Of a stretch of 64,000 bases of DNA, positions 2,940-55,732 are shown piece after piece. Origin of the DNA: a virus (taxonomy: Duplodnaviria > Caudoviricetes); IMG/VR virus record IMGVR_UViG_3300010011_000004, positions 21,788-85,787 of that record. One strand, 5' to 3'. Numbering within the stretch: the stretch's first letter is position 1; every line of letters begins with the position of its first letter. The position numbers and the translations under genes are program-made. The notes beneath the pieces were generated by a model. It had not been told where the DNA came from. It saw only the letters and a program-made list of their open reading frames with translations, and searched no databases.

Positions 2940-3470
2940 ATTAAATTTGTATAGTACTTGAGGATCATTTTTTATTTGATAATATATTATTTTAATTAGC
3001 TAAATATTTTAGTGCACTCTTTCAACATATGACTTAAGGATCATTTTTCATAAAAAAATATAGTACCGAGGAATTATCTTTTTGGTATATATTATACTGT
3101 ATACTGGAATATAGTTCCCAGGAACTATACCATAGTACATATATGGTTCTAGAGATTCAATTTTCAGCATTTTTTTACCAATTAGCAACTTAAATTTGAG
3201 TGCGGATAAGTTAAATATAGCTACCAAAAGCTAATAATTTAAAAGCTATAGCTATTAAATACCAAATATATTAGATACTATAAATATTAAATACTATAGC
3301 TATTAAATACCAGAATTATAATCGATTGATTATCAGGTATACCTGATAATCAATCGATTGCTAGCAAGTAACTAGCTAGCTAGTTACTTGCTAGCAACAG
3401 ATAATATAATCTATTAAGCTATAGATTCTTAATAATAATAACTAATTAAATATCCTAGGAATTTAGGAAA
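2940..3470. other. Very AT-rich non-coding region with direct repeats and palindromes; candidate replication origin
   Basis: No ORF. 19-mer ctatagctattaaatacca at 3246 and 3294; related (g/a)aggatcattttt motifs near 2959 and 3036; two perfect 40-bp palindromes; lies at a gene-strand switch. Confidence 0.5.
3320..3397. repeat. Two abutting perfect 40-bp palindromes (3320-3359 and 3358-3397)
   Basis: aatcgattgattatcaggta|tacctgataatcaatcgatt and ttgctagcaagtaactagct|agctagttacttgctagcaa, each checked base by base. Confidence 0.95.
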
Positions 3471-3643
3471 TTATAAATTAGCGATAAATTAAAAAATAGC
3501 AAATTTTGTCATAAAAAATTGGCGGCAAATTTTAAATTTTAAATATTAAGCAAATATATTAAGAAGTAAAATTAAAAAGGGTAAAATAATTATGTTTAAA
3601 GGATTAACTAATACACCATCTGATATATTCAACAAAGAATCAG

Positions 3644-5190: not shown

Positions 5191-6156
5191 TTGGACGGAA
5201 TAAAGGAAGAGAGTATTGGTAAAAATGCAGCTGTATTGCTAGAAAAAATCCATTCATTGTGGGTCGAAAAATATCGACCCAAAAATATTAATGAATTAGC
5301 TGCTAGTAAAGAAATTAAAAGATTTCTAACAAAAGTAATTGCTGATCAAGATATTCCACATATTCTTCTGCACGGAAAACCTGGTACGGGCAAAAATTCC
5401 ATTGTTAACATTATTATTAATAACATTAATTGTTCAAAACTTATTATCAATGCTTCTGAAGAGAGAGGTATTGATACAATACGTGACAAAGTAATGGCAT
5501 TCGCTAATTCTTCTGCTTGGGGCAATAAGCTAAAAATAATCGTGTTAAATGAAGCCGATGGTCTTAATTATGTCGCCCAAGATTCTCTACGCGAGTTAAT
5601 GGAAACATCGAGTAAATATTGCAGGTTTATTTTAACTTGTAATTCCATTAACAAAATCAATGAAGCAATTAGAAGTAGATGCGTTGAATTTGAAACACAT
5701 GTTGAACTATTAGATGCTGCTAAAAGGTTAGTTGAGATTTTAGAAGCCGAAAACGTTGAATTTGACGAAGATTATATCATCGCTGTAGTCAAGAAATATA
5801 ATTGCGATTTACGCAAAATAATCAATGAATCACAGAAGCTATATAATACGCATGGTAAATTAACTAGATCCATTTTAGAATCAGATTTAGTTGATCGTTA
5901 CGATAAATTATTCGACGATATTTTTACAAAAACCACTACTGTTAAAGATATAGCTAATGCTACTAAAAAATATATTTTTGATGAGAGTATATATACATCG
6001 CTTAAAGATTACTTTATTAAGAAGTATGAAGATTTACCAGATGCTATTATTATAATTGCTGAATATGCTTATAAATCGCGAATTGTTTTAGATAAGGATT
6101 TGGTGTTTTTAAGTTGTATTCTTGAATTAAAGGAAGTTATTAATAATAAATCATAA
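5191..6156 (+). CDS. Clamp loader ATPase subunit (RFC small / T4 gp44-like)
   Basis: WVEKYRP, Walker A GKPGTGK, INASEERGIDTIR, SRC motif; TTG start after AGGAGG. Confidence 0.92.
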   Translation: MDGIKEESIGKNAAVLLEKIHSLWVEKYRPKNINELAASKEIKRFLTKVIADQDIPHILLHGKPGTGKNSIVNIIINNINCSKLIINASEERGIDTIRDKVMAFANSSAWGNKLKIIVLNEADGLNYVAQDSLRELMETSSKYCRFILTCNSINKINEAIRSRCVEFETHVELLDAAKRLVEILEAENVEFDEDYIIAVVKKYNCDLRKIINESQKLYNTHGKLTRSILESDLVDRYDKLFDDIFTKTTTVKDIANATKKYIFDESIYTSLKDYFIKKYEDLPDAIIIIAEYAYKSRIVLDKDLVFLSCILELKEVINNKS

Positions 6157-6172
6157 TAGGAGGAATGATTAA

Positions 6173-7228
6173 ATGAATACATATGAAGCATTAATCAGAA
6201 CTTTAAAGTATCAAGGTTGGATATCCAGTCCAAGAGGGCAAGAGATAAGAGAACTACTTGGTCGTGATTTAATAGTTACTGATCATGATGTATTAATCGA
6301 TTCCGTTCATAGAAATACAGTTGATCCAACGACTCCAGAAGGTAAATATTTAAGAGCAGAATTTATGTGGTATATGTCTGGTAATTTAGATCCAGATTAT
6401 ATATCACGTTTTGGTAAGATGTGGAATTCGCTTAAAAATGTAAACAGTTATTCTTCTATTCAAGCGTTTGTAAATAAAGTTAATTCGAACTATGGTTATC
6501 ATGTTTTTTGGAAACCAGTTATTGAAGCACCTATCTATAAATCTGGAATAATGCATGATATTAAAAATAGTCCTTTTGAATATGTGATAAAAACATTAAG
6601 CAAAGATATATTTAGTAGACAAGCTATAATACAATACACACTTTCTAATATATATGAAGAAGGTGTTAATGATTTTACATGTACGCAAAATCAGCATTTT
6701 TTAGTTAGGAACAATTATCTTTATAATCTTGTGCATATTAGATCTTCTGATGCTGTTAAAGGATTAACTTTTGATATTCCTTGGTGGGATATAGTTGGTC
6801 AATTCGTTGCCGGAACATTGAATGTCAATTATAATGGTCTTTATGTATTTATTGGTAGCGCACATTTTTATGAAAAAGATCTAGATCTGATAAATAATCT
6901 TTTGGAAGATGGAGTAAAATGGCGTGGATTAATATTAAGACCAAAGTGTGAATTAATTGATAACATGAAGAAAATTATAGATAGTATGTGTGAATATGCA
7001 GTTGCAACGTTTAATCGTCAGGTATATACAGATATATTACTGCTTAATGATTATTATTTTAGATTAGTTAATATACAAAAATCTGGTAATATTTCACTTA
7101 AAGATATAATAACTTCTTATTTACATATTGCTAGTAAATTTGTAGACTTAACCACAAATTATGTTGTAGATAATGCTACATGTGAGCATTTTAATAATGT
7201 GTTATTTGATTCTATTTTTTGTTATTAA
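6173..7228 (+). CDS. Thymidylate-synthase-fold enzyme, most like dCMP hydroxymethylase (T4 gp42-like)
   Basis: NSNYGY, SRQAI, DFTCT (catalytic Cys) and RSSDAVKGLTFD parallel T4 gp42 NSNYGW, DFMCT and RSNDVVFGFRND; Asp sits at the dUMP/dCMP discriminating position. Confidence 0.72.
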   Translation: MNTYEALIRTLKYQGWISSPRGQEIRELLGRDLIVTDHDVLIDSVHRNTVDPTTPEGKYLRAEFMWYMSGNLDPDYISRFGKMWNSLKNVNSYSSIQAFVNKVNSNYGYHVFWKPVIEAPIYKSGIMHDIKNSPFEYVIKTLSKDIFSRQAIIQYTLSNIYEEGVNDFTCTQNQHFLVRNNYLYNLVHIRSSDAVKGLTFDIPWWDIVGQFVAGTLNVNYNGLYVFIGSAHFYEKDLDLINNLLEDGVKWRGLILRPKCELIDNMKKIIDSMCEYAVATFNRQVYTDILLLNDYYFRLVNIQKSGNISLKDIITSYLHIASKFVDLTTNYVVDNATCEHFNNVLFDSIFCY

Positions 7229-18780: not shown

Positions 18781-20088
18781 ATGTCTGTTATAAATGATCA
18801 AGTTTCTTTTAAAAATTTGTATAAGGAATTGTTCGGCGAACCTTCGCCATTAAATGAAAGAAAAGATATAGATGTAAATGCTTTAGAAGTTATGAAGCTA
18901 AGATATTTTATTGATTTACCTGACGGACAAAAAGAAAGTAGCTTTTCACAGCTTTGTAGAAGGGTCGCCAGAGTAGTTGCTTCAGGTGAATATAGAGATG
19001 ATATGCCAGATGAAGATTTAAATTACATACTTAATATTGAGGAAAGTATATATAACGATATGATGAGCCATAGATTTTTATTTAACTCTCCAGCGTTATT
19101 TTCTGCTGGTACTGGTATAAGTGCTAATAAAAATCTGAGCAATTATCTCTATAAGCCGCTTACCCGTGGTAATTATTCTGAAATAAGAGAAACATATGAA
19201 AAAATATCTAAGAATTATAGCAGAAACCAAATGATGTTCGCATGCTTTACTATTGAAGTTCCAGATTCGATCGAAGGAATATTTGACAGCGTAAAAAATG
19301 CTGCCATTATTTCTAAATTTGGTGGTGGTGTAGGAGCTAATTTTGGATCATTGAGAGAAAAAGGAGCTCCAATAGCTGGTGGTTGTGGTGGTCAAGCTTC
19401 TGGTCCTGTATCTTTCATGCAGAACTGGAATACTATGGGATCGACTGTCGTACAAGGTGGTAAAAGACGAGCTGCTCTAATGGGTATGCTCAACGTTCAT
19501 CATCCTGATATCGAAGAATTTATCTCATGCAAAGAAAACGACGGCAATTTAAGTTATTTCAACATTTCGGTCGCTATAGATGACAAATTTATGAATGCCG
19601 TTAAGAATGACGAGATGTATGATCTTATCTCTCCTAATACTGGTAGAGTTGTAAAGACCGTGAGAGCTAGAGATCTTTGGAAAAAAATATGTACCAATGC
19701 CCATAAAAATGGAGATCCAGGTGTCTTCTTTATTGACATAGCTAACCGGGATAACCTGCTTAAAAATGATAGAAAATACTATATTGAATCGACAAATCCA
19801 TGTTTAACCGGAGATACTTTAGTAATTACAAAAGATGGGGAAAAACGAATTGATAAAATAACGACTGAAGATTATGTTTTAACAGCTGATACTGAAACAA
19901 AAGAGTTATCATACGAAAAAGTTGAATTTAGTGGTTGTACTAAAAGAAATGCAAACATAATAGAAATAGAATTAGAAGATGGAAAAATTTTAAGATTAAC
20001 TCCAGATCATAAAGTTTTTACTGAGAACCGAGGGTATGTAGAAGCTAGTCAGCTTTTAGATACTGATGTTATAGTTATAGTCGAATAG
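18781..20088 (+). CDS. nrdJ: Class II (B12) ribonucleotide reductase N-terminal half fused to IntN of a split intein
   Basis: FLFNSP, ACF, GGGVG, VVQGGKRRAALM, GDPGV, then ESTNP|CLTGDT (intein block A) and TPDHKV (block B), then stop. Confidence 0.92.
   Translation: MSVINDQVSFKNLYKELFGEPSPLNERKDIDVNALEVMKLRYFIDLPDGQKESSFSQLCRRVARVVASGEYRDDMPDEDLNYILNIEESIYNDMMSHRFLFNSPALFSAGTGISANKNLSNYLYKPLTRGNYSEIRETYEKISKNYSRNQMMFACFTIEVPDSIEGIFDSVKNAAIISKFGGGVGANFGSLREKGAPIAGGCGGQASGPVSFMQNWNTMGSTVVQGGKRRAALMGMLNVHHPDIEEFISCKENDGNLSYFNISVAIDDKFMNAVKNDEMYDLISPNTGRVVKTVRARDLWKKICTNAHKNGDPGVFFIDIANRDNLLKNDRKYYIESTNPCLTGDTLVITKDGEKRIDKITTEDYVLTADTETKELSYEKVEFSGCTKRNANIIEIELEDGKILRLTPDHKVFTENRGYVEASQLLDTDVIVIVE
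19801..20085 (+). other. Split intein N-fragment (IntN, 95 aa)
   Basis: Begins with Cys1 right after NP; block B TPDH; ends NRGYVEASQLLDTDVIVIVE-stop. Confidence 0.9.
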
Positions 20089-20158
20089 TGTTATAACACA
20101 TGGATTCATACAAAATTAAACTTAATTATATAAGATCTTATAATTAGGAGAGATTTGT

Positions 20159-20908
20159 ATGAATCCATGGAATATTAAAATGAATATAGATTTTGATCCT
20201 GAAATTAAAAAAAGAATATTAGAATATTATAATAAAATTATTAGTTATGGCAGGAGTTCAAAAAGAAAAGAAGCTTTAAAATATATTCAATTAGATTCAG
20301 AAGCAGTTGAATATTTAACTAAAAAATATGTTCATGAACAATATGGTTATAAAATGTTAGGAAGAGCTTTAGATTTATCATATTCTAGAGTTAGAGTGTT
20401 AATAAAAGATTATTTGAAAATTGAGGTTAGAACAGGATATAAGGTTGTTACGGATAGAGTTAAAAAGTTTAGATCAGACAGAGTTAAAGGAGATTTAAAT
20501 CCATGGGCCCATATATTACCACATCAGATAAAAAATCAAAGAAGTATACAGGGTTTTTATATTAAAAAAGATGGTACTAAAATATGGCTTAGATCAACAT
20601 GGGAGTATATATATGCTAAATGGTTAGAAAAAAATAATATTAATTTTACTGTAGAAACATTTAAATTTAAACTTTCTAATAATGAATTTTATATACCTGA
20701 CTTTTTTATTTATGATTCATTTGGAAATATAGATTTTATAGTTGAAATAAAAGGTTATAAATCTAGAATGTATAAAACTGAAATGTTTAAAAATGAATAT
20801 CCTGAGTATAAACTGATTATTATTACTAATATATCTTCATATTGTAAAAACTATAAAACGGAGGTACAAACATGGAGAAATCTTTGTCAATTAAATCATG
20901 TAAAATAA
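20159..20908 (+). CDS. Free-standing endonuclease between intein halves (HTH + PD-(D/E)xK, TnsA-N-like)
   Basis: RSTWEYIYAKWLE...YIPDFFI...IVEIKGY; N-terminal HTH-like segment. Confidence 0.75.
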   Translation: MNPWNIKMNIDFDPEIKKRILEYYNKIISYGRSSKRKEALKYIQLDSEAVEYLTKKYVHEQYGYKMLGRALDLSYSRVRVLIKDYLKIEVRTGYKVVTDRVKKFRSDRVKGDLNPWAHILPHQIKNQRSIQGFYIKKDGTKIWLRSTWEYIYAKWLEKNNINFTVETFKFKLSNNEFYIPDFFIYDSFGNIDFIVEIKGYKSRMYKTEMFKNEYPEYKLIIITNISSYCKNYKTEVQTWRNLCQLNHVK

Positions 20909-22563
20909 AAAGGATTAGAGTAGTAGAAAATGAAGATGTTTATGACATTAGAGTTAAAAAGAATCATAATTTTTTTGCTAATGGAATTTTAGTACATAAT
21001 TGTGGAGAGCAGCCATTACCAAATGATTCAAGCTGCAATTTAGGATCGATTAATTTAGCTGAATTCGTCGATCCAACGTATGGATTTAATTATAAAGAAT
21101 TTGAAAACCAGATCTTGAGGGCGATGTATTATTTAGATCTGGTTATAGACGTAACTAGTTATCCACTTAAAAAAATAGAGAAGAATACAAAAGATATCCG
21201 TCCGGTTGGATTGGGTATTATGGGTTTGGCTGATGCTTGCATTTTGATGGGTATTAAATACGGATCGAGAGATTTTGAGATGTTCGTCGAAAGAATAGCG
21301 ATAACATTAGCTTCTTGTTCGCTTATTGCTACGGTATCAATGGCAGCAATGAAAGGACCATATCCTCATTTTGATGATGAATTCGGTGAGAGAAAATACC
21401 TGAACAGTGTGCTTAAAGCTGAAGATATAACTGAAGATAATATAGATGATTTAATAACAAATAAGATATATAATGATACTGATTTTCCTATATCATTTAA
21501 AAAAGCAATTATAACCAGCTATTTAGACATTAAATCTAAGGCTGGAATTAAAAAAGCTGTAGAATTTTTTAAGCATCTATTTTCAACTAAACCAGGTAAA
21601 GGAGGATTGAGAAATTCTAGAAGATTATCAATAGCTCCAACAGGAACGATATCATTGCTTTTGAATACAAGCTCTGGTATTGAGCCTAATTTTTCATATG
21701 AATGGACACGACAAGTTACTTTATCTCCTAATGAAAAACGACAGCTAACGTATTATCATAGGTTTTATACTCCGCAGAACAAAGAGAAAGGCTTATTAGT
21801 TACAGCGCATGATATATCACCTGAACAACATGCTAGAGTAGTGTCTATATTTGCTCCTTATATTGATAGCGCTATAAGTAAGACGGTTAATATGCCGCAT
21901 GATGCGACTGTAGAAGATGTTGAAAAGGTATATGAATACTGCTTCGAACACGGAATAAAAGGAATTACAATTTACAGAGATGGTTCTCGAGATGAACAGC
22001 CGATCAAAAAGATTGAGACAGAAAATGATCCCGGTAAGAAGGCGAAAATCAAATCAAGACCTAAATTTATGCAAGGAGTTACTACTAAATCAGATTCGCC
22101 ATACGGATCGATTTATGTAACAGCTAATTTTGATGATGAAGGTAAAATGTTTGAGACGTTCATTTCTGCCGGCAAGTCCGGGAGTGTATCCAAATCTATA
22201 ACTGAAGCTTTAAGCAGAGTAATAAGTTTAGCTTTAAGGGCAGGTGTAGATATAGAAGATCTGATTAGCACTATTAATAATATATCGGGTTCTGAAGTTT
22301 GGGTATATGATTCTTTAGACGGCGAAGAGATCGTAGTTAAAAGTATTCCAGATGCTGTAGGAAAAATGCTTAGGGATTTAAATAATTATTACACAATGCT
22401 TTTTAAGAAAGATTCAACAGCTAGAAGCAATCAACCTACCAATTCAAATAACAGTAAGACTTTTGGCCATTATCGCAGTTCCTGCCCAGAATGTGGATCA
22501 TTTATGATACCCGCATCTGGATGCGCTGTTTGTCCTAATTGCGGATATTCGGATTGTAAATAA
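20872..22563 (+). CDS. nrdJ: IntC (43 aa) fused to class II RNR C-terminal half
   Basis: Own RBS GGAGG. VYDIRV...NFFANGILVHN|CGEQPL...CNLGSINL, IAPTGTIS, SGIEP, SKTVN, TSCPD-like domain, C-terminal CPEC/CPNC. Confidence 0.92.
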   Translation: MEKSLSIKSCKIKRIRVVENEDVYDIRVKKNHNFFANGILVHNCGEQPLPNDSSCNLGSINLAEFVDPTYGFNYKEFENQILRAMYYLDLVIDVTSYPLKKIEKNTKDIRPVGLGIMGLADACILMGIKYGSRDFEMFVERIAITLASCSLIATVSMAAMKGPYPHFDDEFGERKYLNSVLKAEDITEDNIDDLITNKIYNDTDFPISFKKAIITSYLDIKSKAGIKKAVEFFKHLFSTKPGKGGLRNSRRLSIAPTGTISLLLNTSSGIEPNFSYEWTRQVTLSPNEKRQLTYYHRFYTPQNKEKGLLVTAHDISPEQHARVVSIFAPYIDSAISKTVNMPHDATVEDVEKVYEYCFEHGIKGITIYRDGSRDEQPIKKIETENDPGKKAKIKSRPKFMQGVTTKSDSPYGSIYVTANFDDEGKMFETFISAGKSGSVSKSITEALSRVISLALRAGVDIEDLISTINNISGSEVWVYDSLDGEEIVVKSIPDAVGKMLRDLNNYYTMLFKKDSTARSNQPTNSNNSKTFGHYRSSCPECGSFMIPASGCAVCPNCGYSDCK

Positions 22564-28454: not shown

Positions 28455-29288
28455 ATGGCTGCATTAGATGTAATCAACTTAATCAATGTTGTGCTTAGTA
28501 AATATTTACCAATAACAGATGATAGATCTGTTAAATTCGGTGGTGTACCCTATCCAAAAAATGGTTGGGCTATATTTACATGCGGTGGACCTGGCTCAGG
28601 AAAATCATATACTATAAATAAGCAATTGATGATCGATGCTAAAGTTCTCGACAGCGATCAAATAAAAATGTTATATATAAAATTGCTTAAAAAAATAATC
28701 AGCAGCCCAAAAGTAGATGAAGAAACTAAAAAGCAGTTACTCGAGCCATTCGGTGGAAAAATACCAGATCCTAAAAATCCTAATGATATGGATACTTTAC
28801 ATAAGTTTACTAGCTGGAAAAAACATTTATTCAGTAAATCTTTAAGCAGCTTTATAAAGAGTAGCGCTAAGAATTTACAAAATTTTATCATTGATACGAC
28901 AGGCAATAACATTAATGAGATAGCATTAAATGCTACAATGTTTAAAAATATGGGCTATAAAGTTGCTCTCGTTTGGGTTATAACTAATATCGATTTAGCG
29001 AGAATTAGAAATAGAACTCGAGATAGGGTTGTACCAGAAGATTATCTTGAGAATATACATCATAAGATTATCAGTACTATACCAGCTGCTATAAGAAACG
29101 GCTTACTGAATGTTTTAGACGAGATATGGATAGTATTTAGTAAAGACAGCGAAGAAAGAGAATTCAGAAGTAGGTTTAAAGATACAGCGTTCAAATTAGA
29201 AAAAGTCAATGGTAAATTTATATTAACAGATGATATGCTTCAAAAAATAACACAGCATACTGGAGTGAAAGATAACAGCCATGAATAA
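28455..29288 (+). CDS. P-loop kinase (zeta-toxin/AAA_33-like)
   Basis: GGPGSGKS, DSD, IIDTTG, RNRTRDRVVP. Confidence 0.75.
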   Translation: MAALDVINLINVVLSKYLPITDDRSVKFGGVPYPKNGWAIFTCGGPGSGKSYTINKQLMIDAKVLDSDQIKMLYIKLLKKIISSPKVDEETKKQLLEPFGGKIPDPKNPNDMDTLHKFTSWKKHLFSKSLSSFIKSSAKNLQNFIIDTTGNNINEIALNATMFKNMGYKVALVWVITNIDLARIRNRTRDRVVPEDYLENIHHKIISTIPAAIRNGLLNVLDEIWIVFSKDSEEREFRSRFKDTAFKLEKVNGKFILTDDMLQKITQHTGVKDNSHE

Positions 29289-30354
29289 ACCGATAGAAAG
29301 AAAATATAACATTTACAAAAAAGATAAAAGTAATAACACAAATAAAAACAACAACATTATAACTAAAGTGCCGAATAATCCAGTGATGCTGAGCAAAGAA
29401 GATATATTTAATAAAATAAAAAATCTAATTTTGTCGCAGAAAGCCAATGACAGTTATATAGCTGAAGTTATTAATAAGTTGAATAGTATGGGTATCAATA
29501 ATTTTGTGGTAAAGACGGGTAAACAAATACACATTAAAACTGATGAGAATAGAGTTAAATTGTTGCAGCGTTTGGCCGAGAGTTTTGGAGGAAAGTATAT
29601 CGATAAGCCAAGCGGCATATCATCAGCCGGGTATGTTGAATTAGATAACGGTATTAAGTTGGTGGCTAAACCTAACAAAACTCACAGTGCTGGAATACTA
29701 AACGAAAAAATATTGGTCGACCATATAAATAAGTTATGCGCCAAAGGACCGATTAATATACGATTTATAGGCGAAAATAAAACTTTTGAATGTATAGGAG
29801 TTAAAAACTGTAAAGCGACCGGTACAGATGTTACTAATAGACGCAAAGCTGATCTAGTATTGCAAGGAATTAAAGATTATCCTATATCACTAAAGAAAGA
29901 TAACGCTGAAATTTGGGAGTCGGCTGATCAGTTTGCCGGAGCAAAAGCTAAAAAAATAATAGACAAATTAGTCAAAGAAAATAAAGTTGAATTGGAACTG
30001 ACTGATAAAGGTGTTTATAAGATAAAACCAAATGTAGCTTTTTATCCTACAACTGAAGAGAAAAGAGATTTGGTATTTGGTAGCGACATATTACCTAATG
30101 GTGCTGTCATTGAAAAGACATTTAGCGGCGATGAAATATATACTATGAATGATGATAGTTGGTTCGAAATACCAGTTACGTATATAATTACCAGCCTAAA
30201 TGATGTTGAAGGTCATAGGGATGTCGTGTTTTTAATTCGTAATGATTCATCTAGAAATTCAAAACATATCGGATATCCAGGTTTAAGAGTATTAGCTGTT
30301 TTTGAAAAACGACTGAATAAAAACGTTTTGATATATAAAGGCGATGTTGATTAA
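29281..30354 (+). CDS. Putative PD-(D/E)xK restriction-endonuclease-like nuclease
   Basis: GILNEKILVDHIN...KADLVL...ISLKK pattern, as in type II REase-fold cores. Confidence 0.5.
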   Translation: MNKPIERKYNIYKKDKSNNTNKNNNIITKVPNNPVMLSKEDIFNKIKNLILSQKANDSYIAEVINKLNSMGINNFVVKTGKQIHIKTDENRVKLLQRLAESFGGKYIDKPSGISSAGYVELDNGIKLVAKPNKTHSAGILNEKILVDHINKLCAKGPINIRFIGENKTFECIGVKNCKATGTDVTNRRKADLVLQGIKDYPISLKKDNAEIWESADQFAGAKAKKIIDKLVKENKVELELTDKGVYKIKPNVAFYPTTEEKRDLVFGSDILPNGAVIEKTFSGDEIYTMNDDSWFEIPVTYIITSLNDVEGHRDVVFLIRNDSSRNSKHIGYPGLRVLAVFEKRLNKNVLIYKGDVD

Positions 30355-30437: not shown

Positions 30438-30962
30438 GTGGAATATAGCATAGATGTATACGACATGGTGTTCCCTAAGTACGCTAAATTGCAGTTTAAA
30501 ATCAACAAAGCTGGCAATATGACTTTAACTGCAGCACCAGCCATTACACCTGGTAAATTACCAGATGGAGTAAAACCTGGGCAGATTCCTAAAGGAACTA
30601 AAATATTTGACTATGATTCACAAATCGTTATATCTTTGACGTTTCAGGACTGTCTGAAAATAATAGATATGGCTAAGTCGAAAAATGTAACGACTTCAGT
30701 TGAACTCTTTCGTAATAGCGATAAATACAATAAAAAAGTAACTTTATCATATTTTCCTGACGATCAAGATCCTACGAAAGTTAAATTCGCTACTTTCTGG
30801 TTTAACTCAACTAATGAAAGCGGAAAAGAAATTAATTTTAAGCTGCCACTGTCTATATCAAATTTAGAAGAAATAGCTGAGTTAATTAAATCTTACGTTA
30901 ATTGTTTTGCGATGATAAAATTGTTCTGTCAGCAACAACTACAGCAATCACAGGCAAAATAG
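30438..30962 (+). CDS. Hypothetical protein, possibly Whirly/PC4-like ssDNA-binding fold
   Basis: LTAAPA...FDYDSQIVISLTFQDCLKII is reminiscent of Whirly; RBS aaggagg. Confidence 0.4.
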   Translation: MEYSIDVYDMVFPKYAKLQFKINKAGNMTLTAAPAITPGKLPDGVKPGQIPKGTKIFDYDSQIVISLTFQDCLKIIDMAKSKNVTTSVELFRNSDKYNKKVTLSYFPDDQDPTKVKFATFWFNSTNESGKEINFKLPLSISNLEEIAELIKSYVNCFAMIKLFCQQQLQQSQAK

Positions 30963-31100
30963 ATAAAGGATTAGGTATTAAAAGGAGGTGGTTATGAGGG
31001 ATTGCCATATTATAGTATACCAGCTCATAAAAAATTAAGAGGTAATTTTTACTAGAAAATGAATAAAATGGAGTTATATCTAATTAAAATAGATAAACTC

Positions 31101-31130
31101 AAAGGGGAGATATAACTCCCCTTTATTTTT
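31101..31130 (+). terminator. Intrinsic terminator
   Basis: ggggag-atataa-ctcccc followed by tttattttt. Confidence 0.75.
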
Positions 31131-31151
31131 ATAATAAAAATAATAAATATA

Positions 31152-31376
31152 TTGGAGGTTACAGTTATGAAAAAACTGGTTGCTTTTATTATTATAGGTT
31201 CAGCATTGGTTATAGCTGTACTTACATCGAATTTACCGATAATAGTTAGATTAGCTGGTTTAGCTGTCGTGGCTGGATTTGTATATGCTTTTATTAAACA
31301 CGGGCCTGGAAAAAAAGTTGGTGAAGAAATTAAAGAGGAATTGGATGACCTTAAAGATAAATTTGATAAAAAATAG
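31152..31376 (+). CDS. Small two-TM membrane protein
   Basis: Two hydrophobic segments and a charged C-tail. Confidence 0.6.
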   Translation: MEVTVMKKLVAFIIIGSALVIAVLTSNLPIIVRLAGLAVVAGFVYAFIKHGPGKKVGEEIKEELDDLKDKFDKK

Positions 31377-31405
31377 TGTACATATCAGCAACTATATGTT
31401 ATAAT
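31377..31405 (+). promoter_or_regulatory. sigmaA-like promoter TGTACA-N17-TATAAT
   Basis: tgtaca tatcagcaactatatgt tataat; drives the two-gene unit ending in the AcrIII-1-like gene. Confidence 0.65.
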
Positions 31406-31449
31406 ATAATTATAAGAAAAGCTAATAATGAAATGAGGAGGAAATTGAT

Positions 31450-32091
31450 ATGGATGGATTAAAATATTTGGAGCTAATTCATTTTCCTAATTATGAAATA
31501 GATGAGCCGTATGTCGTATTTCAACAAGGTGAGGTCATGTGTACTCGACCATTGTTTGCCAACAAATACGGTTTAGCTCTGTATAATGCTAATTTAGATA
31601 CCGTTAGAAGTATTCTTAAGGAACGATATGACATATGGCGCAAAGGATATTTTGTTGAACTTGAAAATTTGTTAGATAATGCTGGAATTACATATGAAGT
31701 TGTCGATGATTCATTCTTTGCTACTGAAGATGTTATATTAATCGATTTGTATAGGATCGAGCCGGATCAGGCTATTGTTAAGAGTCGCCGTTATGATGAA
31801 TTAGATCGCTATGCCAATGTTAAATTGTGGATTAAATCCGATTGGAGTAATATCAAAACTTGGAAAACTGTTGCCGTCATAGCTGATAGTAAAGTTGAAT
31901 TAGATAGATATAATATAATCTATGAAGTATATTCTGTCAATAATTATCCACCTGAATTGGAACAAGAATATTTATTGGTCATGACCGATGATGGTAAAAC
32001 TACAGCTAGATTTATAAATAAAAATGAGAAAGAATATAGATCAAATATCGTAAAATATGGTTATAGCAGCGTTAGTAATCTAATTGTGTAA
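31450..32091 (+). CDS. Hypothetical protein, 213 aa
   Basis: RBS gaggagg; first gene after the promoter. Confidence 0.7.
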   Translation: MDGLKYLELIHFPNYEIDEPYVVFQQGEVMCTRPLFANKYGLALYNANLDTVRSILKERYDIWRKGYFVELENLLDNAGITYEVVDDSFFATEDVILIDLYRIEPDQAIVKSRRYDELDRYANVKLWIKSDWSNIKTWKTVAVIADSKVELDRYNIIYEVYSVNNYPPELEQEYLLVMTDDGKTTARFINKNEKEYRSNIVKYGYSSVSNLIV

Positions 32092-32107
32092 AGGAGGAGT
32101 TGGCGAA

Positions 32108-32449
32108 ATGGCAGATATAGATAAGATGGGATTAATTCTGAACGCATTTAGTATTAATATGCTGAACAATTTTCCTTGTGCTGTTTTAATTGAGGATATA
32201 ACAGATTATATTCTTAAAGAAGATATTAAAGTTGTAATGAAGAAACTATTAGATTCTGGGTATAAGAGCTATGTCGGACACGCCGATCTGGCTAATTTAA
32301 TTGGTGTACCATTTAATCGTGAAAGCGTGACAATGGAAAAAGGTGATATAGCTATCGTTGTCCAATATCGTGGTGAAAGACTTCCGGAAGGAGCTACTGA
32401 GCTACCAGAAAATAGCGAACTTAGAATATATAAAGTGACTATAGAATAG
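32108..32449 (+). CDS. acrIII-1: AcrIII-1-like viral ring nuclease (DUF1874/STIV B116 family)
   Basis: LNAFSINML..FP, SYVGH (catalytic His), NR, GD, RLPEG match recalled SIRV1 gp29 motifs (NAFSINMLTKFP, SIGH, NR, RLEEG); ATG 32108. Confidence 0.82.
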   Translation: MADIDKMGLILNAFSINMLNNFPCAVLIEDITDYILKEDIKVVMKKLLDSGYKSYVGHADLANLIGVPFNRESVTMEKGDIAIVVQYRGERLPEGATELPENSELRIYKVTIE

Positions 32450-32464
32450 TTAACAAGCAATAAT

Positions 32465-32498
32465 AAAGGAGAGAAGATAGCTTCTCTCCTTTATTTTA
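32465..32498 (+). terminator. Intrinsic terminator
   Basis: aaaggagagaag-atag-cttctctccttt followed by a T-rich tail. Confidence 0.75.
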
Positions 32499-32511
32499 TA
32501 TATTATTACAA

Positions 32512-32715
32512 TTAGAGCGTTATAACTTCAATTTCTCCAGCTGCTGTATCTGCTACATACAGCTTACCGCTTTTATGGAACATACCTTTAGGAAATTTAA
32601 CTTTGCCGGCTTCTTTTCCATAACTAACTATTACATTACTAGTAGTCCATGCGTTGTTAAATTTAACGATATTAGAAGTTATAATACTCCATTTAATAAT
32701 ATACTGAGCATATAT
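32512..32715 (-). pseudogene. NHL-repeat-like fragment lacking a start codon
   Basis: Minus strand translates ...GKEAGKVKFPKGMFHKSGKLYVADTAAGEIEVITL*; an in-frame TAG lies upstream. Confidence 0.4.
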
Positions 32716-32862
32716 TTTAACCTACCTTTTTTAAACATTAATATACAAAAAATATTCTATTATCACTTTTGAGTTACCATTTTTTGATAATGCAATAGCA
32801 GTCAATAGCGGTCAATCAATAACACACAGTATTAAATTTAATTTTACATAAATTGTAGTGAT

Positions 32863-32894
32863 AAAAAAAGAGGGAGATTAATCTCCCTCTTTTC
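32863..32894 (-). terminator. Terminator after the major capsid gene
   Basis: agagggagat-ta-atctccctct flanked by A/T runs. Confidence 0.75.
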
Positions 32895-32910
32895 TTCTAT
32901 CATCTAATGT

Positions 32911-34035
32911 TTAGATCGTGCCAGTTATATTCAGAACTCCGTAGTAGTCAGGACGTAGTACGCCTAACCAGTAACGGGTTCTAGCCATAACTGAAGGCAT
33001 TCCTTCAGAGTAGTAAATCGGGTGCAGCTGCACAGGAACATAAGGTGCGTACACTGCTCCAGTATCTTCAGGCTTGCTTCCTTTGAATCCAAGCAGAATC
33101 TGGTTGTCAGGGCACAGTGGCGAAGTGTATACTTTATAAACTCCGCTCAATGTTCCGATGTTGACTGTTCCGACATCCATTTGATCAGTCGGATTACCAT
33201 TTCCGCTGAAATTCATCAAGCTCTGGAAGATAGTAGCTGTTACAGGGCTGCATACCAGGTAAGTCGCTCCGGATACATGCGTTGCCTGGTATATAGTATT
33301 GCTCAGTTTGTTGATCTTCGGCATGATCGTCTCATACCATTGGTTGATACCGCGTGTCCAAGTCATAGGCATCGTAGCATCCCATGTATCAGATGTAGTA
33401 GCTTTGCTGAACAGCAAGTCGATGACTTCACTATCTATTTCTGTCGCGATGGTTGTCGTCAGATAATCGACCATTCTATCTTCAAAGTTTTCGCCGAATT
33501 CATTCTTATAGTCTTCCATAAGTTCGAAGCTGTAAGTAGCTCCAAGCTTACGGGTCTTAGCTTCGACAGCTACTTTGGTAATCTCAAATCTCATTGTGTT
33601 GTAGGTTTTACTAGTTCCAAACGGTATATTCTTCTCTATGTCTTTCTTATAGCTGAATCTTAGCTGCTTTTCAATAGGGCTACCGTTCAATTCTGTGACT
33701 GTGACAACGAAGTCTAAAGTTTTAGGATTTACAACACCGACGACTCTATAAGCACTAGTCAAAGAATTGACTACGCCATTCCTATCAACTTCGGCGATCT
33801 TAGTAAATGCCGTACCATTGGCTATTTCTATAAACAGAGTACCTTCAGAAGGTACGTTTGATAGAGTTCCAGTGAAGCTAGTAGCTGTATTTCCACTAGC
33901 ATTTGCTGCAGAGAGGATATCCTCTTCTACTGCGCTTTGAGGAGATGAATAAGCATTATCTCCTTCTTTCCAAGGATATATATTCTTAGTAGTTCCATTT
34001 ATACCTTCAACATAAGCATCCAGAAATCTGATCCA
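32911..34035 (-). CDS. Major capsid protein exon 2 (T4 gp23-like)
   Basis: AVEAKTRKLGATYSFELMED, IATEIDSEVI, LLGFKG, YAPYVP, TRY; spliced product 467 aa. Confidence 0.92.
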   Translation of the reverse strand, partial: WIRFLDAYVEGINGTTKNIYPWKEGDNAYSSPQSAVEEDILSAANASGNTATSFTGTLSNVPSEGTLFIEIANGTAFTKIAEVDRNGVVNSLTSAYRVVGVVNPKTLDFVVTVTELNGSPIEKQLRFSYKKDIEKNIPFGTSKTYNTMRFEITKVAVEAKTRKLGATYSFELMEDYKNEFGENFEDRMVDYLTTTIATEIDSEVIDLLFSKATTSDTWDATMPMTWTRGINQWYETIMPKINKLSNTIYQATHVSGATYLVCSPVTATIFQSLMNFSGNGNPTDQMDVGTVNIGTLSGVYKVYTSPLCPDNQILLGFKGSKPEDTGAVYAPYVPVQLHPIYYSEGMPSVMARTRYWLGVLRPDYYGVLNITGTI

Positions 34036-34317
34036 CACTTTATTCTATAGCTTTCGCTATAGAGTGGACTATATCTTCAGGTACTTTAAGTACCTGTCGG
34101 GCGCTCTAGGAAGTTTTATTGCCTGCGCTGGCTCAACTTCTAGTCTCTGAACCTTCTCCATACTTATTGCGCTTTCAGGAGCTTGGCTGCTGGTTATCCA
34201 TTGTTGCATCTCTCAATTTTTTAAACCATCAAGCCTGCCGTTTCCGGCTACTTTGTGGTATTGAGAGCTTTAGGAACTTCCAGCAATTCACCCGATTTTA
34301 TGCGAGCTAGATTAATA
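34036..34317 (-). mobile_element. Group I self-splicing intron (282 nt, no homing endonuclease) in the major capsid gene
   Basis: Core motifs AAUUGCUGGAA, CAGCAGCC, GUUCAGAGACUA, AAGAUAUAGUCC. P1 GCGGGU/GCUCGC with U.G at the splice site; P8 caggtac-ttaaa-gtacctg; P9 ctatagc-gaaa-gctatag; terminal G; splicing restores the frame. Confidence 0.92.
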
Positions 34318-34596
34318 ACCCGCAGGACCAGTTAATGGTTGTACAGAAAGAATTTGGTTAGCAATTAGACGAGGGAAAAGACGTCTGACCAATGGTATTA
34401 CTATCTTAGGCAGATAGACCATACTTTGCATTGTAGTATCAGCCAAAAGCGAGTTTCTGGTGTTAGCGAGAATTACCTTCATATTTTTATACAGTTGTTT
34501 ATCGTTAACTCCTGCAAGCAGTTGGCGTTCGACTTTAGGCCACACTCTTTCAGAAAGAAGAGCTGTATAATCTCTTTTATCCATTGTTTGTGTCAC
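34318..34596 (-). CDS. Major capsid protein exon 1 (93 codons)
   Basis: PLVRRLFPRLIANQILSVQPLTGPAG, a gp23-family N-terminal motif. Confidence 0.9.
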
Positions 34597-47005: not shown

Positions 47006-47596
47006 TTGAAGTACAGAGCGTTCATAAATTTTACACATAACGGCGTAAAAATTAAAGGTGGAGAAGTATTTGATAGCGTCGAAGTAGGATTTACAACTGA
47101 AGATATTAATTTTCTTAAAGAACAAGGAAAAATAGAAACTGTTTCAATATTCGAAAAAAATAATCAGCCGGTGGTAGATAATTTAAGATATATATACACC
47201 AATGATATATCGACAGATTCTGGTTTTACAGTAGAAGAAAATAAAGTACCATTTGTCAGAGAAAGTATTCCAAATGTTTACACTCCTATTCCAGAAATCA
47301 ACTATCCACCTGAAGAGCCAGATGAGCCATTAGTTCAAGAAATAATTGATACAAGACCTGATTATATAGTAGAAATAAAAGAAGAACCTGAAGTTTTGCC
47401 TTGGGAAAAACCAGAAGAATCAGAGAATAAAAGCAGCTTTAAAGAGTCTGATTTAGCCAAAATGAATAAAACTGAATTAATTAAAATAGCTGAAAAGTTA
47501 AATATTAAGACAGAAGGAAAGACTAAAAAAGAATTAATATCTGATATTAGTCAACTACCCACCGTTTATAGAAGCGGAGGCTTGGAAAAGCCTTAG
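47006..47596 (+). CDS. Protein with a C-terminal Rho-N/HeH-like helical motif; native C-terminus displaced by the IscB element
   Basis: LAKMNKTELIKIAEKLNI..KTKKELI; the last 15 codons derive from the element. Confidence 0.65.
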   Translation: MKYRAFINFTHNGVKIKGGEVFDSVEVGFTTEDINFLKEQGKIETVSIFEKNNQPVVDNLRYIYTNDISTDSGFTVEENKVPFVRESIPNVYTPIPEINYPPEEPDEPLVQEIIDTRPDYIVEIKEEPEVLPWEKPEESENKSSFKESDLAKMNKTELIKIAEKLNIKTEGKTKKELISDISQLPTVYRSGGLEKP

Positions 47597-55627: not shown

Positions 55628-55640
55628 TTAAGACGCCAAT

Positions 55641-55679
55641 GTCAACTACCCACCGCCTATAGAGGTGAGTGTCTTCTTG
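55641..55679. mobile_element. 39-bp mini-element: fused IS200/IS605 ends
   Basis: The first 15 nt (gtcaactacccaccg) are identical to the IscB end at 47550; the other end reads caagaag on the minus strand, like the left ends; single hairpin. Confidence 0.65.
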
Positions 55680-55693
55680 CATAGTTTTAAGAT

Positions 55694-55732
55694 AAAAAAA
55701 GAAGGGAGAGAATAATCTCTCCCTCATTTTTA
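55694..55732. terminator. Bidirectional terminator between convergent operons
   Basis: agggagag-aataat-ctctccct flanked by A and T runs. Confidence 0.7.

Follow-up and report, generated by a model that had tools for sequence, protein, structure and literature searches.

We found that an uncultured tailed phage encodes a 113-aa protein which, judging from its sequence, almost certainly belongs to the DUF1874/AcrIII-1 family of viral ring nucleases, and that its gene follows an acidic orphan gene of 213 aa in a short promoter-to-terminator unit. Across unrelated phages, members of the 213-aa protein family appear to be enriched near ring-nuclease genes, yet the two are separable, a pattern consistent with two accessory genes, probably of counter-defence, that occupy common islands, and not with an obligate pair. 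The explanation that we regard as probable as a whole combines an AcrIII-1 unit, an exchangeable slot ahead of the AcrIII-1 gene, and a 213-aa protein that would bind a defence component.

Genome and setting of the unit

The window analyzed here is a 64,000-nt stretch (GC ~30%) spanning bases 21788-85787 of the IMG/VR virus record IMGVR_UViG_3300010011_000004, an 85,787-bp genome that was rated complete and that ends in short inverted terminal repeats (22 bp perfect). A nucleotide search of the region retrieved no close relative among 50,697 deposited phage genomes. An IscB stub gave partial matches of 52–79% to MAGs of Clostridia, Enterococcus, and Porphyromonadaceae, which is a weak hint that the host may be a member of the Clostridia.

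A long plus-strand block reaches up to the unit, encoding a ribonucleotide reductase, a family-B-type DNA polymerase, and ThyX, together with an endolysin-like peptidase, a kinase-like protein, and a 357-aa nuclease-like protein to the left of the unit. From the right, a minus-strand structural block (major head protein, protease, and portal) converges on it. The two-gene accessory unit sits at the end of the replication/nucleotide-metabolism block, converging on the capsid module. The 357-aa gene (29281-30354; phrog_12709, with a weak EcoR124_C-like stretch) and the 174-aa gene (30438-30962; weak Whirly-like match, E = 0.039) were found at ~67–73% DNA identity in contigs L008 and L009 and form the stable left flank of a variable slot. 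L008, a contig from a related phage, also shares a 277-aa gene at this level of identity.

Architecture of the promoter-to-terminator unit

The two open reading frames of the unit, 31450..32091 (213 aa) and 32108..32449 (113 aa), were both found where the original prediction had placed them, and its description of the AcrIII-1 gene as the second gene of a promoter-to-terminator unit agrees with a promoter-like site upstream, a gap of 16 nt between the two genes, and a strong two-way terminator downstream. On the left, an intrinsic terminator (31101..31124, plus strand) closes the 174-aa gene and marks the border of the variable slot. Inside the slot lies a plus-strand gene for a small hydrophobic protein of 74 aa (31152..31376), with a weak match to the phrog_3045 'membrane protein' family (E = 0.0035); the gene has no counterpart in L009 and is present in L005, a close variant of the window phage.

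A candidate sigma-70/SigA-like promoter with an extended -10 element (TGTACA-17-TGtTATAAT; 31377..31405, plus strand), identified as a consensus match, begins right after the stop codon of the 74-aa gene. The pattern TKTACA-N14-TGNTATAAT, common to the promoter-like sites ahead of related genes elsewhere, has its one exact match in the window at this candidate promoter, and five sites in the window match it with at most one mismatch, compared to 0.26 expected. Similar T[GT]TACA...TGnTATAAT sites were present upstream of members of the 213-aa family in L008 and L006.

Downstream of the candidate promoter, all on the plus strand, are a ribosome-binding site read from the sequence (GAGGAGG, 31435..31441), the acidic orphan gene (31450..32091), a second ribosome-binding site (GGAGGAG, 32093..32099) located just past the stop codon of that gene, and the DUF1874/AcrIII-1-family gene (32108..32449), whose ATG lies 8 nt after GGAGGAG. 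Gene callers pick a TTG at 32084 for the AcrIII-1 gene, giving a product of 121 aa; the ATG at 32108, giving 113 aa, appears to be the better supported start. The unit is closed by a two-way intrinsic terminator (32462..32495; 15-bp stem, dG -20.6 kcal/mol, z -6.97) that divides the plus-strand block from the minus-strand structural block converging on it. A search of Rfam over 30900..32950 returned no entry at gathering score.

A DUF1874/AcrIII-1 family protein

Membership of the 113-aa protein in DUF1874 had been proposed from its motifs, and it was confirmed by an HMM search, in which the protein matched PF08960 (STIV_B116-like, that is DUF1874) with 30.4 bits against a cut-off of 26 (E = 4.4e-7). 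PF08960 was likewise above this cut-off in the search of the genome (29.4 bits), and the protein also matched phrog_5063 (E = 2e-11). In a phmmer search of the PDB, it matched 2j85 (STIV B116), 2x4i (SIRV1 gp29), and 6scf, the co-crystal of SIRV1 gp29 with cyclic tetra-adenylate (cA4). All of the motifs on which the assignment to AcrIII-1 had been based were present, namely NAFSINML (residues 12-19), FP (22-23), GH (57-58), NR (70-71), and RLPEG (91-95), and the identity as AcrIII-1/DUF1874 holds on the family match, the sequence matches to solved structures, and the conservation of key residues together.

Homologues of AcrIII-1 are common: we retrieved 952 database proteins, each with PF08960, and one scan alone yielded 150 viral contigs with a confirmed DUF1874. 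The closest relatives included the protein P0003, an AcrIII-1 homologue at 78%, and the best match in a deposited phage was Tsac_2833 of THSA-485A (36.6% identity). Given how common such homologues are, the window protein adds to a known family. It is a solid, ordinary further member of a large and well-described group, one more bacterial-phage example that makes a useful annotation and not a discovery.

To compare catalytic positions, we used a 19-sequence MAFFT alignment, since pairwise HMMER alignments displace the GH motif by five residues and the multiple alignment resolves this shift. In the multiple alignment, G57-H58 of the window protein falls in an invariant column with G46-H47 of SIRV1, which includes the catalytic histidine. 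The SIRV1 residues N8, S11, N13, G46, and H47 correspond to N12, S15, N17, G57, and H58 of the window protein, and R66, Q81, R85, E88, and G89 correspond to R71, Q86, R91, E94, and G95. The side chains that contact cA4 in SIRV1 are N8, S11, N13, S49, T50, R66, Q81, and R85 (10.1101/778746), and six of these eight are identical in the window protein. Of the remaining two, S49 is replaced by Asp, as in the active THSA-485A enzyme, and T50 is replaced by Leu, a minority state seen in 3 of the 19 aligned sequences. The THSA-485A protein abolished cA4-dependent, and not cA6-dependent, type III immunity (10.1101/778746). On these grounds, the 113-aa protein is very probably a cA4 ring nuclease.

Like SIRV1 gp29, STIV B116, and THSA-485A Tsac_2833, the window protein is a virus-encoded single domain of ~110 aa with PF08960, and it shares with the AcrIII-1 viral ring nucleases the NAFS-N-M, GH, NR, and RLPEG motifs, the catalytic His, and the Arg 'lock'. 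Its identity to the studied AcrIII-1 proteins, to which it was matched by sequence alone, is ~32–39%. Compared to them it has an insertion of 11 residues before the GH region, in addition to the T50-to-Leu replacement, and the loop after GH is short (a 6-residue deletion), as in many bacterial and phage homologues. The same domain also occurs in Crn2 and Csx16, which are host-encoded, CRISPR-associated relatives of DUF1874, and the window protein matched the PADLOC Csx16 model (E = 7e-7). However, the genes for Crn2 and Csx16 are found within type III CRISPR loci or as fusions with Csx1, whereas the window gene lies in a virus genome between polymerase/RNR/ThyX and capsid genes. Crn2 was ruled out as an identity for the window gene, which is outside any type III CRISPR-Cas locus and in a complete virus record.

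Role of the ring nuclease during infection

By homology, AcrIII-1 would form a dimer that binds cA4 at the dimer interface and cuts it on both sides to A2>P / A2-P, with His58 as the general acid. Loss of cA4 would remove the second messenger that switches on the ancillary nucleases of type III CRISPR. We infer cA4 cleavage, as we do an anti-CRISPR effect in vivo, the timing of expression, and any function of the 213-aa protein.

Whether AcrIII-1 protects a phage depends on timing and on the host. The original prediction had called the unit early, which is a presumption about its timing. Timing matters because the SIRV2 homologue is reported to be a middle/late gene with no anti-CRISPR action in real infection (preprint 10.1101/2023.01.10.523387); as that study indicates, late expression can leave a homologue ineffective as an anti-CRISPR even though it is catalytically competent. 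The window protein might similarly be an active ring nuclease that does not serve as an anti-CRISPR here, being made too late or in a host without cA4 signalling, in which case the gene would give some other replicative advantage or be a neutral passenger. Such a role would follow the precedent of SIRV2 gp37, which lacks anti-CRISPR activity in native infection and has a different host target (10.1101/2023.01.10.523387), and would suit a gene at the far end of the replication block, adjoining the late capsid module, in a phage for whose host there is a weak Clostridia hint. However, the catalytic and cA4-binding residues have been kept under selection across the 952 homologues, the unit carries its own host-type candidate promoter with an extended -10 element that matches the consensus, and the homologue from the bacterial phage THSA-485A blocks cA4 immunity (10.1101/778746). 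Moreover, the interaction with a lysine methyltransferase described in the SIRV2 gp37 study is restricted to crenarchaea. We therefore consider a ring nuclease without anti-CRISPR function somewhat unlikely, and we lean slightly toward AcrIII-1 being effective as an anti-CRISPR during infection.

An exchangeable slot ahead of a resident gene

Contigs L009 and L008 both show a terminator, a promoter, a gene for a protein of 146 or 156 aa, and then an AcrIII-1 of the same type as that of the window at 61% identity; in L008, this AcrIII-1 is a 3'-open ORF at the contig end. DNA homology between the window and L009 stops at the upstream terminator, where window 31096-31147 corresponds to L009 1881-1929 at 83% DNA identity, and it resumes at the start of the AcrIII-1 gene. 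This break indicates that AcrIII-1 is a resident gene and that the slot ahead of it is exchangeable. AcrIII-1 is a conserved resident of the unit in related phages and the position preceding it is variable. In the window phage, the slot is filled by the 74-aa membrane-like gene, the host-type promoter, and the 213-aa gene.

The 146/156-aa gene upstream of AcrIII-1 (L009:2027-2467 and L008:7437-7907) encodes an HAE...PCxxC motif that is reminiscent of the zinc sites of cytidine/dCMP deaminases. The protein had no match in Pfam, and tblastn against the window genome gave no homologue (E = 0.98).

Mobile elements were also observed in this part of the genome. L005, which is 98.9% identical to the window phage, carries a 1.6-kb insertion right after the AcrIII-1 terminator (L005:1496-3111, equivalent to window ~32498) that encodes a full IscB-like protein of 435 aa with a PLMP-type N-terminus. 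The ends of this insertion resemble window 47550-47584 and 55639-55731, and IscB elements thus appear to be active in this phage population. In L008 (3118-6644), a TnpB gene (IS605 OrfB) is in two pieces, an N-part (3118..3633) and a C-part (5931..6644), the latter with PF01385 and a Cas12f1-like TNB domain. The splitting segment of 2.3 kb contains a paralogue of the 213-aa gene, a DUF1874 gene, a second paralogue, a tRNA-His, a terminator, and a promoter, as well as 30 codons from a third paralogue that are fused in frame to the TnpB C-part. This arrangement could stem from illegitimate recombination, or the contig could be an assembly chimera. Relatives of both L008 paralogues (P0126 and P0127) were also present on a separate ENA contig of 3.9 kb.

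The acidic orphan protein

The 213-aa protein had no match in Pfam, PHROG, PADLOC, or PDB sequences, nor in a tblastn search of 50,697 phage records. A word-indexed search returned its near-identical cluster only, and a search of the ESM Atlas gave no usable match. Of 1.84 billion representative proteins scanned in full with HMMER, two were relatives (48% and 40% identity). By a metagenome scan followed by scans seeded from neighbours, we assembled a family of about a dozen loci, all on viral or metagenome contigs, in which identity to the window protein drops to ~20%. No family member was found in 399 sampled Clostridia genomes.

The window protein has a pI of 4.74, within the range of the family (pI 4.1–5.0). 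The family has no conserved Cys or His, and the positions that do not vary are hydrophobic or structural, a pattern more suggestive of a binding protein than of an enzyme. A model predicted by AF2 from an 8-sequence alignment was of moderate quality (pLDDT 72.7, pTM 0.52; single-sequence prediction, pLDDT 35) and consisted of two beta-rich halves linked by a disordered acidic loop. With this moderate model (pLDDT 72.7), Foldseek searches of PDB and BFVD gave best E-values of 0.05–0.07 and none at or below 0.001, and an exhaustive VIA-align search gave a best Z of 4.1. Matches to a kinase N-lobe, PipX, and a Cas/anti-Cas entry were at noise level, and these folds were rejected. The model showed no recognizable similarity to CARF, SAVED, or Tad/Acb-like folds; since it is only moderate (pTM 0.52), such folds may have escaped recognition. 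A profile search of the PDB with the family gave nothing below E = 0.5. Profile comparisons also rejected a relationship to DUF1874 (probability 1%), to the genes flanking DUF1874 in THSA-485A, one of which also encodes 213 aa (0.1–5.5%), and to a 107-aa gene that follows the family member in L006.

Co-location with DUF1874 genes

In several unrelated phage backgrounds, members of the 213-aa family were neighbours of DUF1874 genes, either adjacent to them or at most 2 kb away. L008 has a second DUF1874 gene (PF08960 E = 5.9e-27), with a family paralogue on each side; this gene is of a different subtype and aligns with the window protein over 50 residues only, at 42% identity. Next along are the tRNA-His, a terminator, a promoter similar to that of the window, and a third family member represented by its first 30 codons. 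The second subtype also occurs in L094-L097, viral contigs with a GC content of 45–51%, each with a family member 1–2 kb away; L094-L096 are near-identical and count as one lineage.

The association is separable. The family is present without DUF1874 in L100, L103, and L105 (for L103 and L105, within 3–4 kb). The family member in L100 is 96% identical to that of L096, and a 1.9-kb segment of L096 that comprises a 305-aa gene, DUF1874, a 143-aa gene, and an RHH regulator is missing from L100; the DUF1874 module of L096 is inverted in L097 and L104. Among 80 other viral DUF1874 loci, none had a family member within 2.5 kb.

The original prediction had put forward the 213-aa gene as an anti-defence candidate by guilt by association. 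The part of this argument that stood is the recurrence of the family near DUF1874 genes in other phages, and the part that did not is an exclusive link, given the contigs with the family and without DUF1874, the AcrIII-1 genes behind an unrelated gene in L009 and L008, and the 0 of 80 loci. As the link is separable and the slot variable, guilt by association is only partly supported, and the separability of the genes warns against inferring function from a single neighbourhood.

Candidate functions of the 213-aa gene

That the 213-aa protein acts in anti-defence is a tentative reading of its genomic context, to which we give somewhat less than an even chance. Evenly poised in our view is the explanation that the gene is unrelated to defence or to AcrIII-1, an accessory gene in a recombination-prone slot, with the co-location simply reflecting a common insertion hot spot. 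This explanation would account for the family members in L100, L103, and L105, for the independent indel that is the DUF1874 module of L096, inverted in L097 and L104, and for the absence of the family from the 80 other loci. It would also account for the 146/156-aa gene that occupies the slot in L009 and L008 and for the clustering of mobile elements there, with IscB inserted in L005 and TnpB split in L008. It fits less well with the rarity of DUF1874 genes per kb of phage DNA, given that a family member lies at most 2 kb from one in the window, in L008 (two, flanking), and in L094-L097, over a GC range of 30–51% and two subtypes, and that the window has the two genes in a single unit with 16 nt between them.

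A closer tie between the two proteins would have the 213-aa protein bind the ring nuclease as a partner or set its specificity, for instance by extending its action to other cyclic oligoadenylates or by targeting it. The tight operonic linkage in the window and the two L008 paralogues flanking a DUF1874 gene would agree with this, but AcrIII-1 works alone in vitro and in vivo (10.1101/778746), its relative in L009 (61%) lacks such a partner, the family also occurs apart from DUF1874, and it pairs with two DUF1874 subtypes that align over 50 residues only (42% identity). A partnership of this kind is accordingly improbable. Still less credible, to the point of being very improbable, is an Aca-like repressor of acr transcription that regulates the unit. 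A co-encoded regulator is usual in acr operons (PMC13551039). However, no HTH or RHH domain was found in the 213-aa protein by Pfam or PHROGs, and the one RHH row of the PDB profile search was at chance level (E = 0.59). The protein is acidic, its predicted model is mostly beta-strand, its gene lies upstream and not downstream of the acr gene, and in L096 a separate RHH protein adjoins DUF1874.

We return to the preferred explanation, in which the 213-aa protein would most likely bind or inhibit a component of host defence in a stoichiometric manner, beside AcrIII-1 but independently of it. A bolder version, which we consider distinctly unlikely, is that the family is a new class of phage counter-defence proteins working in the same battle as the ring nuclease; its members might neutralize a component or effector of type III CRISPR, or soak up cA3 or cA6, the cyclic oligoadenylates that AcrIII-1 might be unable to cut. 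This version would explain the three paralogues around one DUF1874 gene and the recurrence of the family in DUF1874 islands.

The unit resembles known anti-defence islands and acr loci in being a short promoter-to-terminator unit with a known anti-defence gene and small unknown genes, in differing in gene content between close relatives, and in having mobile elements nearby. Unlike acr loci, it has no Aca-type regulator, and the 213-aa gene is a candidate anti-defence gene only. The main output of this analysis is a small test set: some dozen loci of an acidic orphan family for which no fold match was found and whose members repeatedly share variable islands with genes for ring nucleases, in phages that differ widely in base composition. 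Any member able to block a defence system would define a new anti-defence family and would add a second case of phages combining several countermeasures to cyclic-oligoadenylate signalling.

Other features of the phage and related loci

The L096 module (L096:2060-4036, equivalent to L098:5036-6904), whose regulator is of the Arc/CopG-like RHH type, behaves as one insertion/deletion unit and looks like an acr-plus-regulator cassette. In THSA-485A, a CopG-like gene is located four genes away from DUF1874.

Two genes of the window phage are interrupted. The major head protein gene (window 32911-34596, minus strand) consists of a 93-aa N-part and a 375-aa C-part with ~270 nt between them, both of which match phrog_138. 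The large subunit of ribonucleotide reductase (window 18781-22563) is encoded by two ORFs that cover phrog_84 positions 202-495 and 488-974, with an endonuclease-like ORF in between. A remnant of a deleted gene lies between the AcrIII-1 and capsid genes: a 69-aa frame running from stop to stop (window 32512-32721, minus strand), with the C-terminal stretch ...KVKFPKGM...YVADTAAGEIEVITL, that matches the C-terminus of an intact 307-aa NHL-repeat protein of L009 (2888..3811).
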